The notes beneath the pieces are model-generated. The model was not told the DNA's origin and ran no database searches. It saw only the letters and a list, made by a program, of their open reading frames with translations. Source: Candidatus Aenigmatarchaeota archaeon (GTDB taxonomy: Archaea; Aenigmatarchaeota; Aenigmatarchaeia; Aenigmatarchaeales; Aenigmatarchaeaceae). Taken from it: a stretch of DNA of 64,000 nucleotides. The translations under genes and the position numbers were made by a program. The DNA lies in assembly GCA_046760145.1 (NCBI GenBank), contig JBHIDO010000001.1, forward strand, positions 947 to 64,946. Reading direction: 5' to 3'. Shown in pieces: positions 55,963 through 61,875 of this stretch (position 1 is its first letter; every line of letters starts with the position of its first letter).

Positions 55963-56094
55963 TTTATCAACTTAAGAAGAATTAGAAAAACAAATATAAA
56001 AAGTTAAAGGACTGACAATTAATTCATGAGAAATATATTACCCATACTAGATAGTATAAAGAATAGAAAAATTTTAAAATAAATTAATAAAATT

Positions 56095-56271
56095 TTATCT
56101 CCTTCTTCTTGCAAGTCTGTATCCGCCTTTGACCTTGTAAATTGTGTAACCTTTCCTTCTTGCTTTTCTTGCAGCAGCTTTTGTTTTGAAAGTTTTCTTC
56201 CTTGAGGTTCTTCTTCTTGTTCTTCTTCTTGCTGTTCTTCTTCTTGCAACTCTTCTTCGTCTTCTTACCAT
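56095..56271 (-). CDS. 58-aa arginine-rich, protamine-like small basic protein (MVRRRRRVARRRTARRRTRRRTSRKK...)
   Basis: Hand-translated from minus strand. Perfect GGAGG 7 nt upstream of ATG 56271. Encoded on a (CTTCTT)n simple repeat. The supplied track lists only the poly-Glu alternative frame (56019-56249), which lacks an RBS. Confidence 0.4.
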   Translation of the reverse strand: MVRRRRRVARRRTARRRTRRRTSRKKTFKTKAAARKARRKGYTIYKVKGGYRLARRRR

Positions 56272-56342: not shown

Positions 56343-57386
56343 TTATCTTTTATTACAAATTATAATACCAGATTCATTTTTCTTACCATTTACAGTAAAT
56401 TTTACTGGCAAGAATTTTTCAATTACCCAAATATTTGTTAGGCAATGATTTGTAATTTCTGCAACAGAAATTTTTCCACTTGCAATTGCAAGATATGGTA
56501 ATATTTGATCTGTCATCCATCTATCTAAACAAGCATTTGTATCTAATTGTTTTTTTAATAAATTTGCACATTCTTTTCCAACATCTTCTGCCTTCTTTCT
56601 AATTTCGCCTAAACTGCTAGCACCTAAAATACTATTTGTTGTTTTTGCCCATAGAACAATTCCAGATCCTGGACAAATAGCATCGCAATATTTATAATCT
56701 ATTTTTGGAGATATAGCAAACTTTTTTGAAATAATTTTTTCTGCTGAATCTTTTTGTCTTTCAGCTACCTTAGATTTTTCTAGGTGTTTAGATGCAATTG
56801 AAATACCACAAATATTCTTTATATTTCCTTGTTCAGTTAAAATAATTTGTTTTAGTTTTTCTGCAGGATATATTTCTATTTCAACTTCGCTACCTCCACG
56901 GGGATAGAAGCCATGTCTTTTAACATTTAATTTAATTTTATAGTCTATTTTTTCTAAGAGTGGTATTGTCACATTTTCTAAATAAGGCGTTGGCGGTGCC
57001 CATTTTCCAAAACTTGCACCGCCCTTTATACTAATGTTAATTTTGTGCTTCGCAGAAATACAGGCAAGTTGTAATAATTGAAGAATTAAACCAATTGAAG
57101 CTGCGGTAGGAACTTCTATGGTTAATTTACTTTCTTTAATTTTTTGGGGGTAAAATTCTATTTCTTTGCTCCTTAACGTTATACCTTTCGTTTTAGCATT
57201 ACATAATTTTTTTGCAGCTTCTATACTTTTTACAAGTTGTGTATGTAATCCTGGTTTAGGACGATTTGATCTTATGTTATATATTCTTACAGGTTTTTGT
57301 GTTAAAATTGATAAACCTAATGATACCCTTACTATAGCTCCCCCTCCTTCTAGGTAATCTCCTGCTACTTCGATAATATTTTTCAC
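56343..57386 (-). CDS. rtcA: RNA 3'-terminal phosphate cyclase (RtcA family)
   Basis: N-terminal GGGAIVRVSLGLSILTQKPVRIYNIR matches RtcA GGGQxLRxxxxLS motif. 347 aa. Confidence 0.7.
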   Translation of the reverse strand: MKNIIEVAGDYLEGGGAIVRVSLGLSILTQKPVRIYNIRSNRPKPGLHTQLVKSIEAAKKLCNAKTKGITLRSKEIEFYPQKIKESKLTIEVPTAASIGLILQLLQLACISAKHKINISIKGGASFGKWAPPTPYLENVTIPLLEKIDYKIKLNVKRHGFYPRGGSEVEIEIYPAEKLKQIILTEQGNIKNICGISIASKHLEKSKVAERQKDSAEKIISKKFAISPKIDYKYCDAICPGSGIVLWAKTTNSILGASSLGEIRKKAEDVGKECANLLKKQLDTNACLDRWMTDQILPYLAIASGKISVAEITNHCLTNIWVIEKFLPVKFTVNGKKNESGIIICNKR

Positions 57387-57553: not shown

Positions 57554-58810
57554 TTAGATTTTAATTACATCACCATTGTGTGGTGCGATTGTATCAAATC
57601 CTCTAGATTTTAATTCTTTTGCAAACCTCTGACAATTGTCTCCATGCAAACAAATAACTTTCTCGGCATTAATCTTATGAGCCAGTTCAAATAATTCTGA
57701 TCTTCCTGCATGTGCAGAGAAATCAAGATATTGTATATTCATTTTTACTTTAAAATCTAAGTCCTCTGTGACATATCTTCCAGTATCTAGTAAATATCTT
57801 CCTGCTGTTCTAGGTATTAAAAAACCTGTGAATATTAAGGAGCAGTCTTGCCTGTTGTATAGATGTTTCATATATTGAACAACAGGTCCACCTTCCATTG
57901 TTCCTGAAGTTGTTACAATTGCACAAGGTTTTTTTATTGCACGTCTTCTATCATCTTGATTACGAATTAATCTAACATTTTTAAATGCTCTAGCCAAAGC
58001 TTTGGGGTCTCTTAAAAACTTTTGATGAGCTAATGCAATTTCTGTTGCCTTTTTTCCCATACCATCAAGATAAATTGGAAATTTTGGTTTGAACCTATTT
58101 AGAATCATTATAATTTCAGAAGATCTTCCTATTGCAAATGAAGGTAACAAAGCAATTCCGTTTGTTAGGATTGTATCTTTTACTAATTGATATAATTTCT
58201 TTTCTAATTCATGTCTTGGTGGATGATCTCTATTACTATAAGTAGATTCCATTATCAAAATATTAATATCCTTAGCATTAATTCTAGCTCCTGATAATAA
58301 TTCTGTTTGTTTTAGTTTGAAATCTCCTGTATAAAGAATTCTTTTGTTTTCTATTTCTAAAGCAAATGAGCAAGAACCAGGAATATGACCTGCATCATAA
58401 ACTTCTACAAAACCTTTTTTGGTTTCAAATTCTTCATCATATTCTATTACTGTTTCATATCTTTTCATTTTTTCAATATGTTTTTCTGTATAAATCCTAG
58501 GATGTTTCTTTATGATTCCAACTTTTATTGAATCTTTTAAAATCAAATGTTCCAGATCAAAAGAGGGTAAAGTAGAATAAATGTTACATTTTGATTTTTT
58601 GAATATGGTTGGTGTGGATCCACAATGATCTAAATGAGAATGGGTTAATAAAATTGTGTCAACCCTTCCTGGAGGTTTAGGCATTTCCCCCGTTTCTACT
58701 TTAATCCCATAATCAAACATTATTTTTTCCTTTGAATCTATCAAAACTGCATTTCTTCCTACTTCTCTAAAACCACCTAAACATTTGATTTGCATAATAT
58801 AAATATTCAC
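57554..58810 (-). CDS. Metallo-beta-lactamase/beta-CASP ribonuclease (aCPSF2 / RNase J-like)
   Basis: HxHxDH motif (LLTHSHLDHCGS). Beta-CASP motifs downstream (D...H...H). 418 aa. Confidence 0.8.
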   Translation of the reverse strand: MNIYIMQIKCLGGFREVGRNAVLIDSKEKIMFDYGIKVETGEMPKPPGRVDTILLTHSHLDHCGSTPTIFKKSKCNIYSTLPSFDLEHLILKDSIKVGIIKKHPRIYTEKHIEKMKRYETVIEYDEEFETKKGFVEVYDAGHIPGSCSFALEIENKRILYTGDFKLKQTELLSGARINAKDINILIMESTYSNRDHPPRHELEKKLYQLVKDTILTNGIALLPSFAIGRSSEIIMILNRFKPKFPIYLDGMGKKATEIALAHQKFLRDPKALARAFKNVRLIRNQDDRRRAIKKPCAIVTTSGTMEGGPVVQYMKHLYNRQDCSLIFTGFLIPRTAGRYLLDTGRYVTEDLDFKVKMNIQYLDFSAHAGRSELFELAHKINAEKVICLHGDNCQRFAKELKSRGFDTIAPHNGDVIKI

Positions 58811-58845
58811 TTTCTTTTTAAATAGGCAATGGAGAACCTATTTCT

Positions 58846-60855
58846 TCATCTCTTCTTAGTCTTCCAATAACCAGCCGGTTTTCTACTTAAATCGTCTTCT
58901 GTTAAATTTGGAAAAGCTTCCTTCAGAGCCTTGAAGGTACTAGAATCATATGTATTTTGAAATAATCCAGACAACCCATGTTCTTCAAATGCATCAGCTG
59001 TAACATTTTTTATACCATCAACTTCCTCTTTTAACCATTTGATAGCTTCAACCCTAATTTCTTTTTTGTTAAAGAAATTTTTTGGTAATTGTTTTAATGC
59101 TAACCACGGTGTTTCAGCCAATTCAGGATCGTAATATTCAGAATTGGGGTCTGTGAAACCAGCTTCGATAAAGGCAAGATATGGAGAATCACCATAATAC
59201 CAATTAATAAGAGCTCCAAGCTTGTTTTTAGCTAGATAATCAAGAGTCGGATATCTCTTTCCAGTTTCACTCCTAAATTCTTCTACAGCAGCCTGTATTA
59301 GATAGGCTCTATGATTTTTATTTTGTAAGAATTTATCTGGAAATTTCTTCCTTTCACCACGTCTCCTCTCATACCATAGTTGGATGGTCTCTTCTTTGGA
59401 GATATTTAAAAATCTTTTTCTCCTTTCTTCTTTAATTTGTTTTAAACGAAGCCTTTCTTCAAGTCTTTTACTCATAACAGATGGCATATCAGGAAAGTAT
59501 TTTTTTCTAAATTTTTCTAATCCACCATGGTAATGATAAATTGCAACTGAAACAGAACTATTTATTCTGCTTAGCTGAGATGCCGAAGGAAAATGTCCAA
59601 GCTTTTTTATAACTTTTTCTAATTCTTTTTTAACATTATTTTCATCTTTCCAAAAACCTTTTGGTTTTTCTGTTGCAAATCCCCTTTTCATTTTATACTC
59701 TGTCAGACTACCATAAATTGCTGTAATTCCTTGTAATAAACCTGATCTTCCACTATAACTAATTTCATATTGAGTTGGAACATGACCCAAAAGGTCTATT
59801 AATTTGTCAAATTCCATATCAATATTTTTTTTATCTCTCCAATAGTGTCTAGGAACCCTTTTCATGTCTGTAGGTTTTTTTACTAAACCAGCTTCTTTTA
59901 AAGCTGAATAAGCAGAACCATTATAGATATTTGTTATTAAAGTCCCAAGATTTTGTTCTATTAAATCCTCACTTGTTATTTCTTCAACAGGTTTTCCAAT
60001 TGCTTCTACTGCTGATTTAATATGCTCAATTCTACATTCTTTATCTTCCCAATAATACCAAGGTTTTTTGCCTTCTAAATTTTTACTCATTTTATAGTTA
60101 GCTAAACCGCCATGGAAATTTTGTATATCATCTAATAAACCAAGTTTGCCATGTTTTTGAAAATCCGAATAGACAGGAACTCTACCAAGTTTTTCCATAA
60201 ATTTATCAAATTCTCTATCAACCTTTTCTCTATCTTTCCAATAAGCAAATGGATGCTGTTTTCTATCTTCCATTTGTAATGTTGGATATGCTTCTCTTAT
60301 TAATTCAAAAATTATTTTATCTGAGTTTTTTACAACTGCAACAAACCCATTGTTGTAATAGTCATCTTGTGTTAATTCTGCAGGAGATTTTTTAAGTTTT
60401 ATTTCTGCTAACCATTTTGTTGCTCTTATTCTATTCTCTTTATTAGACCAGAATCTTTGTGGTAGTTTTCTTATAACAACCCATGGTGTTTCTGCAAATT
60501 CTTGATTATAATACTCTGATTTAGGATCTGCCAAATCACACAATTTGAAAATCTCATAAGGAGAACCATTATTGTATGTTAGTAAACTTTTAAGCTTATT
60601 TTCTTTGAAATCTTTATTTGTCGGGAAGTTTTCAGGATTTTCTTTTTGATATTCATCTAAAAAGGCTCGACCAACATATTGCTGATGTCTTACATTACTC
60701 CAAAAATAGTTTGGAAATCTTTCTCTAATACCAGCTCTAACTTCATGCCAAATTTGTATAGCTTCCTCTTCAGATACTTCAAAATATTTTTTTCTTCTAT
60801 ATTCTTTAATTTCTTTCAATTTCCTTTTATCTGCTTTTGTTAACCCCTTTGGCAT
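58846..60855 (-). CDS. Internally repeated hypothetical protein (two about 150-aa terminal repeats flanking four about 75-aa YW[KRE]D[KR]EN repeats)
   Basis: Residues about 10-160 and about 470-620 are clear duplicates (e.g. EYYNQEFAETPWVVIRKLPQRFWSNKENRIRATKWL vs EYYDPELAETPWLALKQLPKNFFNKKEIRVEAIKWL). Middle has 4 units like KPWYYWEDKECRIEHIKSAVEAIGKPV. Confidence 0.5.
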   Translation of the reverse strand: MPKGLTKADKRKLKEIKEYRRKKYFEVSEEEAIQIWHEVRAGIRERFPNYFWSNVRHQQYVGRAFLDEYQKENPENFPTNKDFKENKLKSLLTYNNGSPYEIFKLCDLADPKSEYYNQEFAETPWVVIRKLPQRFWSNKENRIRATKWLAEIKLKKSPAELTQDDYYNNGFVAVVKNSDKIIFELIREAYPTLQMEDRKQHPFAYWKDREKVDREFDKFMEKLGRVPVYSDFQKHGKLGLLDDIQNFHGGLANYKMSKNLEGKKPWYYWEDKECRIEHIKSAVEAIGKPVEEITSEDLIEQNLGTLITNIYNGSAYSALKEAGLVKKPTDMKRVPRHYWRDKKNIDMEFDKLIDLLGHVPTQYEISYSGRSGLLQGITAIYGSLTEYKMKRGFATEKPKGFWKDENNVKKELEKVIKKLGHFPSASQLSRINSSVSVAIYHYHGGLEKFRKKYFPDMPSVMSKRLEERLRLKQIKEERRKRFLNISKEETIQLWYERRRGERKKFPDKFLQNKNHRAYLIQAAVEEFRSETGKRYPTLDYLAKNKLGALINWYYGDSPYLAFIEAGFTDPNSEYYDPELAETPWLALKQLPKNFFNKKEIRVEAIKWLKEEVDGIKNVTADAFEEHGLSGLFQNTYDSSTFKALKEAFPNLTEDDLSRKPAGYWKTKKR

Positions 60856-60921
60856 ATTTGAGAATAGAATCTAAAAAGTTAAATACTAAATCTTTATTTG
60901 TTTAAATACTAAATCTTAGTC

Positions 60922-61875
60922 ATGGATAAATTCGATCTAATAACTAGAAATACGCAAGAAATAATAACACTCCAAGAATTAAAAGGAGTTTTAAAAAAGA
61001 AAAATCCTGTTGCATACTGGGGAATAGCTCCAACAGGAGAAGTTCACACTGGTTATTTAATTCCTGTTCAAAAAATACTAGATTTTGTTAAAGCCGGATT
61101 CAAATTTAAAGTTCTAATAGCAGATGTGCATGCTTATCTAGATGATATGAAAACTCCCTGGAAACTAATGGAAGCAAGAGCAAAATATTATCAAGAATGT
61201 TTAAGATTATTAGGATTAAAAAATGTGGAATATGTTTTTGATTCTGACTTTAAATATGATTCTGATTATATAAAAGAAATTTACAGATTATCAGCTATGA
61301 TCACACAAAAAAGAGCTTTGAGAGCAGCATCAGAAGTTTGCAGATTAAAAAATCCTAAAGTTTCTGAATTGATTTATCCAGTTGCACAAACAATTGATTG
61401 TTGGAAATTAGGAGTAGATGTTGCATATTCTGGTTTGGATCAAAGACACATCTACATGCTAGCAAGAGAAACCCTTCCAAAACTAGGATTCAAAGTTCCG
61501 GTTATTGTTATGACCCCTATGTTATCCGGGTTAATTAAAGGGATCAAATCATCTGCCTCAGTTCCAGAATCAAATGTTTTGATATATGATGAACCTGATA
61601 TTATAAAAAAGAAAATAAGAAAAGCATGGTGCCCATTAGAAAAAGAAAACCCAATTTTAGAATATTACAAATTTATAATATTTCCAAGATATGACAAAAT
61701 AGAAGTTAAAAATAAAAGTTTTGAAAGTTTTGAAGATTTGGAAAAAGAATTTTTAGAAAAAAATATTCACCCAGAAGATTTGAAAAATGATTTAGCAGAA
61801 AGATTAATTGAAATATTAAAACCTGCTAGAAAAATTAATAAAAGTTTAATAAAAAAGGCGTATCCAAATGCTTGA
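60922..61875 (+). CDS. tyrS: Tyrosyl-tRNA synthetase, short archaeal type
   Basis: HIGH-like PTGEVHTGYL, KMSKS-like KGIKSSAS. Collinear with the M. jannaschii TyrRS layout. 317 aa. Confidence 0.85.
   Translation: MDKFDLITRNTQEIITLQELKGVLKKKNPVAYWGIAPTGEVHTGYLIPVQKILDFVKAGFKFKVLIADVHAYLDDMKTPWKLMEARAKYYQECLRLLGLKNVEYVFDSDFKYDSDYIKEIYRLSAMITQKRALRAASEVCRLKNPKVSELIYPVAQTIDCWKLGVDVAYSGLDQRHIYMLARETLPKLGFKVPVIVMTPMLSGLIKGIKSSASVPESNVLIYDEPDIIKKKIRKAWCPLEKENPILEYYKFIIFPRYDKIEVKNKSFESFEDLEKEFLEKNIHPEDLKNDLAERLIEILKPARKINKSLIKKAYPNA

Follow-up and report, generated by a model that had tools for sequence, protein, structure and literature searches.

We analyzed a 64,000-nucleotide stretch of contig JBHIDO010000001.1 from a Candidatus Aenigmatarchaeota archaeon (this whole stretch is referred to as the window) and found that one open reading frame (ORF), which with its stop codon occupies 58846-60855 on the minus strand, encodes a 669-amino-acid (aa) protein built from a single ~65-aa, four-helix module, which is repeated eight times in full and a ninth time in truncated form and occurs as two variants, type A and type B. 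The protein belongs to a known but uncharacterized kind, represented by the families PF18780 (HNH_repeat, “homing endonuclease associated repeat”) and PF13255 (DUF4046), and is barely recognized by the current models of either; what sets it apart is an archaeal leader, a mixture of type A and type B units, and the fusion of two genes. With somewhat more confidence than doubt, we interpret it as a non-catalytic DNA-binding array that would derive from the targeting modules of selfish nucleases. The identical 669-aa protein is present in a public collection (P0001). An earlier note on this DNA, made from the sequence alone, had given the coordinates and length of the ORF correctly, and its description of a modular, non-enzymatic repeat protein is borne out in outline by our Pfam search and by our profile parse.

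Our parse of the repeats used one profile for each variant, with the A profile built from the relatives P0002 and P0003, the B profile built from P0004, P0006, and P0007, and the 669-aa protein itself left out to avoid circularity. The A profile matches residues 203-255, 335-394, and 398-452 (independent E values, i-E, of 5e-12 to 3e-22), and the B profile matches residues 130-176, 264-328, 504-569, and 589-647 (i-E of 3e-15, 3e-22, 2e-8, and 8e-16, respectively) together with part of unit 1 (residues 79-102); in 500 composition-preserving shuffles of the protein the top score was at most 7.1 bits. An alignment of the eight ~65-aa segments using MAFFT demonstrated a common pattern, in which P-x-x-[YF]-W and a long helix are followed by G-x-x-P, by short helices (two or three), and by an end rich in Gly. 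Unit-to-unit identity is 8-38%, so far as these alignments show the units are old copies, and we found no tandem repeat at the DNA level within the gene. The architecture, as parsed from these matches, is [leader + B' + linker + B]-A-B-A-A-[leader + B' + linker + B]-stub, with each long terminal repeat consisting of a basic two-helix leader and two further units of the same module. The first leader carries the conserved N-terminal motif M.KGLTK.D..L..IR.Y..YS.EE.v.IW.eVR.G, and the C-terminal end, KPAGYWKTKKR followed by the stop codon, breaks off within the ninth unit; P0018 (50% identity to the C-terminal half) has a complete type A unit after the equivalent KPQGYW.

This parse keeps much of what had been described before and changes its layout. 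The long N- and C-terminal repeats are genuine (residues 1-197 against 456-655, 37% identity over 201 columns, E 2e-45), and the internal repeats are real by independent profiles, but the proposed arrangement of two long and four short repeats is replaced by eight units and a truncated ninth. The full central motif, E-[FL]-x-K-x4-LG-x-x-P, which had been ascribed to four central repeats, occurs in units 3, 5, and 6, whereas unit 4 has only the P-x-x-YW-x-D-K-E start and is of type B. Similarly, the ending GLL...G.L..YKM holds for units 3 and 5 but for no other unit.

Profile-profile comparison indicates that types A and B are homologous variants of one module. When 300 A units were compared with 193 B units, all collected from 167 other proteins, hhalign aligned the two sets with a probability of 96.9% (E 1.9e-10) over 58 columns in register. 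The A consensus reads P.GYWkdweNve.EL..iI.eLGhFPt..EL..lG.ssL..AI.kYHGG...VReklGy, and the B consensus reads P.gyW..KeNRi.AirWLVeKlgK.P.eIt..DF..nGL.GLL.yY.gSPy.ALkEAGy.

We predicted the structure of two sub-regions using AlphaFold2, having dropped a full-length MAFFT multiple sequence alignment in which the head modules, i.e., those of the first 200 residues (the head), were spliced across the two halves of the protein. The di-unit formed by residues 332-460 (alignment of 71 rows) was predicted with a pLDDT of 94.8 and a pTM of 0.62, and shows four helices per unit of ~15, 6, 11, and 8 residues. The head, residues 1-200 (alignment of 21 rows), was predicted with a pLDDT of 92.7 and a pTM of 0.79, and is ordered as two leader helices, unit 1, a linker of three short helices surrounding the invariant P-W, and unit 2, the last with the same four-helix layout as in the di-units. 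The A-A pair has the lower pTM of the two models, which suggests flexible joints between A units and a rigid head. A Foldseek search against BFVD returned two uncharacterized siphovirus proteins as the best matches (E ~0.02). The DC-SIGNR neck (3jqh), which matched the di-unit profile with an E of 1.9e-5, was rejected as spurious, since the match is made up of six weak 23-aa coiled-coil matches, each with an i-E of at least 9.9.

At the level of the assembly, and as read from the sequence of the joint, the 669-aa ORF arose when two paralogous genes of the family (aa 1-456 and aa 457-669) were joined in frame at a slippery A7 run. All 24 other proteins that carry the leader have its motif at the extreme N-terminus (starting at residue 11 or before), and the only internal leader in the family is that at residues 457-510 of our protein, which opens with MPSVMSK..., aligned to the MPKGLTK... 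of residue 1. The minus-strand DNA at the joint is TTT AGA AAA AAA TAC TTT CCT GAT ATG CCA; lengthening the A7 run to A8 gives an end in ...FRKKILS at a TGA (59491-59489), and this restored stop is followed by one nucleotide (T) and then by the ATG of M457 (59487-59485). The A8 version would thus comprise two genes, of 455 aa and then 213 aa, with the kind of tight gene junction typical of archaea. The fusion is reproducible, since an independently assembled Logan contig (L008) matches window positions 58005-61268 with one mismatch and carries the same fused ORF. The two halves of the protein are 37% identical and are as distant from each other as they are from homologues in other genomes, being old paralogues rather than the product of a recent duplication. 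The coordinates of all features are given in Table 1.

Table 1. Features of the repeat gene and of the gap upstream of it, in window positions
Feature	Position	Strand	Evidence and remarks
Leader 1 (aa 1-46)	60718-60855	minus	two basic helices; AlphaFold2 helices 7-25 and 29-41; alignment A4
Unit 1 (aa 47-115)	60511-60717	minus	divergent type B, FPNYFW...NGSPYEIF; partial B-profile match
Linker 1 (aa 116-130) YYNQEFAETPWVVIRK	60466-60510	minus	P-W of the head family, P124 and W125 invariant; short helices 118-137
Unit 2 (aa 131-197)	60265-60465	minus	type B; B profile i-E 2.9e-15
Unit 3 (aa 198-261)	60073-60264	minus	type A, PF18780-like; A profile i-E 4.6e-12; PF18780 15.8 bits when scanned alone
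Unit 4 (aa 262-331)	59863-60072	minus	type B; B profile i-E 2.9e-22
Unit 5 (aa 332-394)	59674-59862	minus	type A; A profile i-E 1.8e-16; di-unit model pLDDT 94.8
Unit 6 (aa 395-456) and tail of ancestral gene 1	59488-59673	minus	type A; A profile i-E 2.6e-22
A7 run at the fusion joint	59500-59506	minus	reading of the joint sequence
Leader 2 (aa 457-504)	59344-59487	minus	second leader copy; leader profile i-E 1.8e-15 at 457-510
Unit 7 (aa 505-574)	59134-59343	minus	divergent type B; B profile i-E 1.6e-8
Linker 2 (aa 575-589) YYDPELAETPWLALKQ	59089-59133	minus	self-alignment and alignment A4
Unit 8 (aa 590-656)	58888-59088	minus	type B; B profile i-E 7.9e-16
Truncated ninth unit and basic tail (aa 657-669) LSRKPAGYWKTKKR	58849-58887	minus	motif scan; comparison with P0018
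16-nt perfect direct repeat TTAAATACTAAATCTT, two copies	60879-60894, 60902-60917	unstranded	start-to-start distance 23 nt; in the 66-bp gap before TyrRS

The family to which the protein belongs is large. An exhaustive phmmer search identified 1396 cluster representatives at E<=1e-3, of which 720 reach E<=1e-10 and 166 reach E<=1e-30, and demonstrates that a word-indexed homologue search, which returned seven proteins with the whole protein and one with the B-unit profile, far underestimates it. PF18780 matches 65 of the 98 best relatives, including the closest ones (73 bits for P0002 and 40 bits for P0003), and gives no match to type B units, to leaders, or to the B-only proteins P0004, P0006, and P0007. 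Around 20 of the best 150 relatives have the query's head as their own N-terminus (alignment A4), with residues W36, P78, P124, and W125 invariant, and nuclease-less proteins of this head family recur in many DPANN genomes at 30-40% identity. Searching with a head profile added proteins named Candidatus Aenigmatarchaeota, with one earlier match from Micrarchaeota, and found P0162-P0168 (E 4.5e-37 to 2.3e-14), of which P0162, P0164, P0166, and P0168 exceed the cut-off of DUF4046 over the head region. The query itself does not reach the DUF4046 gathering cut-off (22.8 bits), being absent at E<=1 and present as a “faint” precomputed match. A tblastn search with P0162 identified 266 plasmids of the Bacillus cereus group and Priestia, where the protein is annotated as “DUF4046 domain-containing protein”, and a BLASTP comparison of the query with WP_050822643.1 of Bacillus thuringiensis plasmid pBTHD521-6 gave matches over the B units and the head (E 5e-7, 3e-5, and 4e-5). 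The tblastn search of phages gave no match for the query or for P0162, and the search for related loci was likewise empty, both for the query (genome and viral contigs) and for P0072 (metagenome contigs). The query thus bridges the two Pfam families, since its A units match PF18780 and its head and B units align with DUF4046 proteins, and these similarities indicate that PF18780 and DUF4046 are one superfamily.

Weak matches to other Pfam families (CUE, Sigma70_r3, YqbF_HeH, and Frankia_peptide) are inconsistent across members, and we treat them as noise or, at most, as hints of something helix-extension-helix-like; those to CUE, Sigma70_r3, and Frankia_peptide lie below the cut-off wherever bit scores are given. 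The Frankia_peptide model (PF14407) recurs below threshold in the type B-rich relatives P0021, P0031, P0155, and P0161 (best E 4.3e-10, all displayed matches under the 48-bit cut-off), and is probably a compositional or motif coincidence.

The domains that accompany these arrays in relatives were surveyed by clustering the non-repeat regions of the 153 best relatives, which fall into a few clusters. The largest contains 15 of the 153 relatives (~10%), for example P0005 (aa 249-380) and P0007 (aa 273-398), and consists of a ~130-aa domain with the invariant elements S..E...D, H, D(F), E, Y, and K (alignment A6). This domain matches T7 endonuclease I (2pfj, 1m0d; E 0.007-0.02) over the catalytic S..E, PDF, and E motifs, and the PADLOC candidate PDC-S69 (E 2.8e-11), and by sequence resembles a T7-endonuclease-I-like PD-(D/E)xK nuclease. 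A few relatives carry Mrr_cat, NA-iREase1, ResIII/Helicase_C, or SNF2 domains, and the genes of P0002 and P0003 lie directly behind a gene encoding a fusion of SNF2 helicase and methyltransferase. The 669-aa protein itself has no HNH, GIY-YIG, LAGLIDADG, or PD-(D/E)xK nuclease in searches of Pfam, NCBIfam, PADLOC, and PDB sequences; the Pfam search found no catalytic domain of any kind, in agreement with the lack of an enzymatic motif described earlier, and NCBIfam, PHROGs, and PADLOC gave nothing credible, with NCBIfam returning two matches far below threshold.

Two side observations concern the arrays of type A units in relatives. In two contigs (L001:2981-7389 and L004:2800-7385), a fusion of a SNF2/DEAD helicase and an S-adenosylmethionine (SAM) methyltransferase, ZorD/DrmD/DpdE-like in PADLOC, overlaps by 4 nt with the next gene, which encodes 8-9 type A repeats and a ~170-aa C-terminal domain without known function; this pair looks like a conserved two-gene module and is a candidate defense or epigenetic system. 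A ~170-aa C-terminal domain with the invariant motifs KIGIDVTN and LDELW also follows type A arrays in P0023, P0044, P0051, P0065, P0067, P0135, and P0139 (alignment A7). Neither this C-terminal domain nor that of alignment A8 has a match in Pfam or the PDB.

Taken as a DNA-binding array, the 669-aa protein could work as follows. The repeat array would be the DNA-targeting part of selfish or defense-type nucleases, and the nuclease-less array of the 669-aa protein would act as a DNA-binding protein in its own right, in which the rigid head and the type B units would build a helical scaffold, while the leaders and type A units, which are more basic, would lie along the DNA. Such an array would occupy particular DNA sites without cutting them, as a domesticated regulator or a site protector, and would have no role in the neighboring RNA-repair genes. 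DNA is favored over RNA because every recognizable fused partner in relatives works on DNA. The nucleic-acid-binding role proposed in the earlier note is accordingly the best available reading of the fused nuclease and helicase domains and of the Pfam name, but with DNA as the probable ligand.

Several observations weigh against this interpretation. The PF18780 match of the query is marginal (27.2 bits over the whole protein, E 5e-6, against a gathering cut-off of 26), and when the units are scanned alone only unit 3 and unit 5 (12.3 bits) touch the model. The protein was earlier described as basic overall, and its pI of 9.32 is indeed high, but this is undistinctive, as the median of the 48 long ORFs in the window is 9.35; its net positive charge is not above the proteome background and is found only in the leaders, the A units, and the stub at the C-terminus, while the type B units are acidic or neutral. 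Most relatives have no catalytic domain, with nucleases associated in ~15-20 of the 153, and the match of the ~130-aa domain to T7 endonuclease I is weak (E 0.007 at best), with the canonical Lys of E-x-K replaced. Foldseek found no significant match to a DNA-binding or any other fold in the PDB (the di-unit reached E 4.1 and the head E 0.92 at best, with TM at most 0.26), and PDB sequence searches with the protein and with the B-unit, A di-unit, and head profiles found no related solved structure. In the open-access full text of PubMed Central and bioRxiv, the two families are mentioned in one table line, which gives PF18780 as a repeat family without known structure, and no demonstration of DNA binding by a member of PF18780 or DUF4046 was found there.

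The same structural and charge data bear on a different possibility, that the helical solenoid binds proteins in the manner of TPR, HEAT, or Sel1 arrays and has no nucleic-acid role. We consider this rather unlikely. An all-alpha protein with a rigidly packed head, in which the type B units are acidic or neutral and most family members lack a nucleic-acid enzyme domain, would suit such a scaffold, and the best Foldseek matches are to TPR-like proteins and designed helical repeats. These matches are all non-significant, however, the recognizable fusion partners (PD-(D/E)xK nuclease, Mrr, and SNF2/ResIII) act on DNA, and no conserved partner gene lies beside the members of the head family whose neighborhoods were read.

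The genomic location of the repeat gene had been taken as a clue to its function, as it is co-directional with genes for RtcA and a beta-CASP RNase. Downstream of the repeat gene are the beta-CASP gene (57554-58810, minus strand) and then that of RtcA (56343-57386, minus strand), and upstream is a divergent TyrRS-SerRS pair on the plus strand, starting at 60922. The relatives of the window SerRS at 71-74% identity are all from metagenome-assembled genomes of Candidatus Aenigmatarchaeota, which places the window in a DPANN archaeon. We fetched 80 SerRS loci and searched them with the A, B, head, and leader profiles and by BLASTP with the query. The backbone of beta-CASP (minus) and TyrRS-SerRS (plus), often with RtcA, is present in 18 of the 80 loci; in 13 of these 18 beta-CASP and TyrRS are adjacent, with a stop-to-stop gap of at most 165 bp, and in the other five the gap is 650-1500 bp, with unrelated genes in the three that were inspected (L018, L026, and L046). 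In the window the corresponding gap is 2112 bp and is occupied by the repeat gene, and none of the 80 syntenic loci contains a family member by any of these searches. As 18 loci keep the backbone without it, the repeat gene is, on this comparison, a lineage-specific insertion between the conserved divergent beta-CASP and TyrRS genes and not an RNA-repair partner, and the RtcA/beta-CASP neighborhood is therefore uninformative on its function. We found no second copy of the family elsewhere in the 64-kb window, and no tRNA or Rfam matches within it.

These data leave very little room for the proposal that the protein is a modular RNA-binding or scaffold partner of the downstream RtcA and beta-CASP RNase, which we judge extremely improbable. 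It would explain the co-direction with beta-CASP across a gap of ~35-50 nt, and some homologues do lie near genes for the exosome, RNase P, or aminoacyl-tRNA synthetases; such RNA-processing neighbors are, however, expected by chance, because information-processing genes dominate DPANN genomes, and no homologue adjoins RtcA or beta-CASP among the contigs read. Our reading of neighborhoods covered ten relatives, i.e., nine homologues and one cluster-mate of a tenth, and identified no conserved neighbor genes. For example, P0021 and P0154 are set among housekeeping genes, P0161, P0163, and P0006 occur in other chromosomal contexts, and P0005 and P0007 are surrounded by small ORFs, together with a LAGLIDADG gene or helicases. 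A test for a conserved upstream partner was negative, as the small ORFs that precede P0161 and P0163 are related neither to one another nor to the family.

Putative promoters are present on both sides of the gene. Each copy of the 16-nt direct repeat TTAAATACTAAATCTT includes a TATA-like box, with the copy at 60879-60894 lying 24-39 nt upstream of the repeat-gene ATG, and the repeat has no exact copy elsewhere in the window; the pair could be a duplicated promoter or an operator. In the short gap after the repeat-gene stop, a TATA-like CCTATTTAAAAAG lies ~30 nt upstream of an ATG at 58795, which is probably the beta-CASP start (MQIKCLGG...) in place of the GTG at 58810, and suggests that beta-CASP has a promoter of its own. 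Since TATA-like boxes precede both genes, at distances of the leaderless type, co-transcription of the repeat gene and beta-CASP would not be required.

Three further features of this region were observed. In Aenigmarchaeota-type genomes (L018, L026, L046, L060, and L085), lineage-specific insertions make the beta-CASP|TyrRS junction a hot spot, which contains, for example, a 142-aa ORF, a 380-aa kinase-like ORF, or a gene pair including an MTAP-like one. The window TyrRS (60922-61875, 317 aa) has 31-42% identity to the syntenic TyrRS proteins (L018-L085), and in the same genomes SerRS has 60-74% and beta-CASP 34-63% identity to their window counterparts; the window TyrRS may be unusually divergent or displaced. 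A 76-aa ORF with a low-complexity QEEEQQEEEQEEE start (56019-56249, minus strand), between an oligosaccharyltransferase-like gene and RtcA, is probably not a gene.

An insertion at a spot that receives unrelated insertions in other genomes could also be a decaying remnant, i.e., a free-standing homing or selfish nuclease gene that has lost its nuclease and is under no selection. The missing nuclease domain, the truncated last unit, and the fusion of two genes at a slippery run would fit such decay, but we consider it unlikely on the whole. The frame of 669 codons is intact in an AT-rich gene (~30% G+C, in a window of 25-31% G+C), where stops arise easily, and a TATA-like box is present at the right distance from the ATG. 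In addition, the head family keeps its four invariant residues and the leader at 30-40% identity, which argues for purifying selection on it.

We compared the DNA-binding array that we favor with known systems, starting with the two Pfam families. Units 3, 5, and 6 are the PF18780 repeat, and the query and that family alike are built of helical units in tandem, which are close in size (54 positions in the Pfam profile). The query differs from that family in having no HNH or other nuclease domain, and in that five of its eight units (type B) and its head are not recognized by the Pfam model. The possibility that a unit would match a well-known domain of established function was raised earlier; PF18780 and DUF4046, the families that it does match, both have no established function, and PF18780 has no solved structure. 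DUF4046 proteins share with the query a head-like N-terminus (..FPkGFW..) followed by type B units with PWE linkers, and are likewise stand-alone, non-catalytic, and without conserved neighbors. They differ from the query in that the query has a longer archaeal leader and interspersed type A units, misses the DUF4046 threshold, and is chromosomal and archaeal, whereas the DUF4046 relatives are found on bacterial plasmids.

Free-standing homing endonucleases of the I-TevI and I-HmuI type use NUMOD/IENR and helix-turn-helix (HTH) DNA-binding modules, which are small, helical, and tandem and occur on interchangeable nuclease domains, with the genes lying between conserved host genes. The relatives of the query are similarly combinatorial and its gene is sporadically inserted, being absent from the 18 backbone loci and from all 80 SerRS loci, but the unit is larger (four helices, ~65 aa), comes without a nuclease, and has no sequence or fold match to NUMOD, IENR, or HTH modules. 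TALE, mTERF, PUF, and PPR proteins are modular helical-repeat nucleic-acid binders, and the query is also a long helical array that could track along nucleic acid. Unlike in those proteins, its units are highly diverged from each other, with the variability spread along the unit and no hypervariable code positions, and it has another unit length and helix count and no structural match to them. Finally, the query lacks the T7-endonuclease-I-like/PDC-S69 nuclease to which such repeat arrays are fused in ~10% of the best relatives.

A much broader idea, which we regard as very doubtful, is that the HNH_repeat/DUF4046 module is a general DNA-reading scaffold, in which each A or B unit would touch a small number of base pairs, the composition of the array would set its specificity, and nuclease-less arrays would be site-specific binders (regulators, or protectors against cognate selfish nucleases) that were recruited repeatedly in DPANN and on Bacillus plasmids. 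If this were true, the 16-nt promoter repeat would be a candidate operator, and the modular reading of DNA by units would be of interest for protein engineering.

For annotation, the apparent link of this gene to RtcA and beta-CASP reflects where it happened to insert, and should not be passed on. The value of the 669-aa protein is that it links two orphan families and that, with it, the existence of a possible new DNA-binding module can be tested in a tractable way. If DNA binding is true, it would provide the first functional handle on PF18780 and DUF4046, which together comprise well over 1000 sequence clusters in archaea, on Bacillus plasmids, and in some phages, and the protein would exemplify a targeting module of selfish nucleases that persists without its nuclease, having followed the same evolutionary route as some DNA-binding domains of transcription factors.

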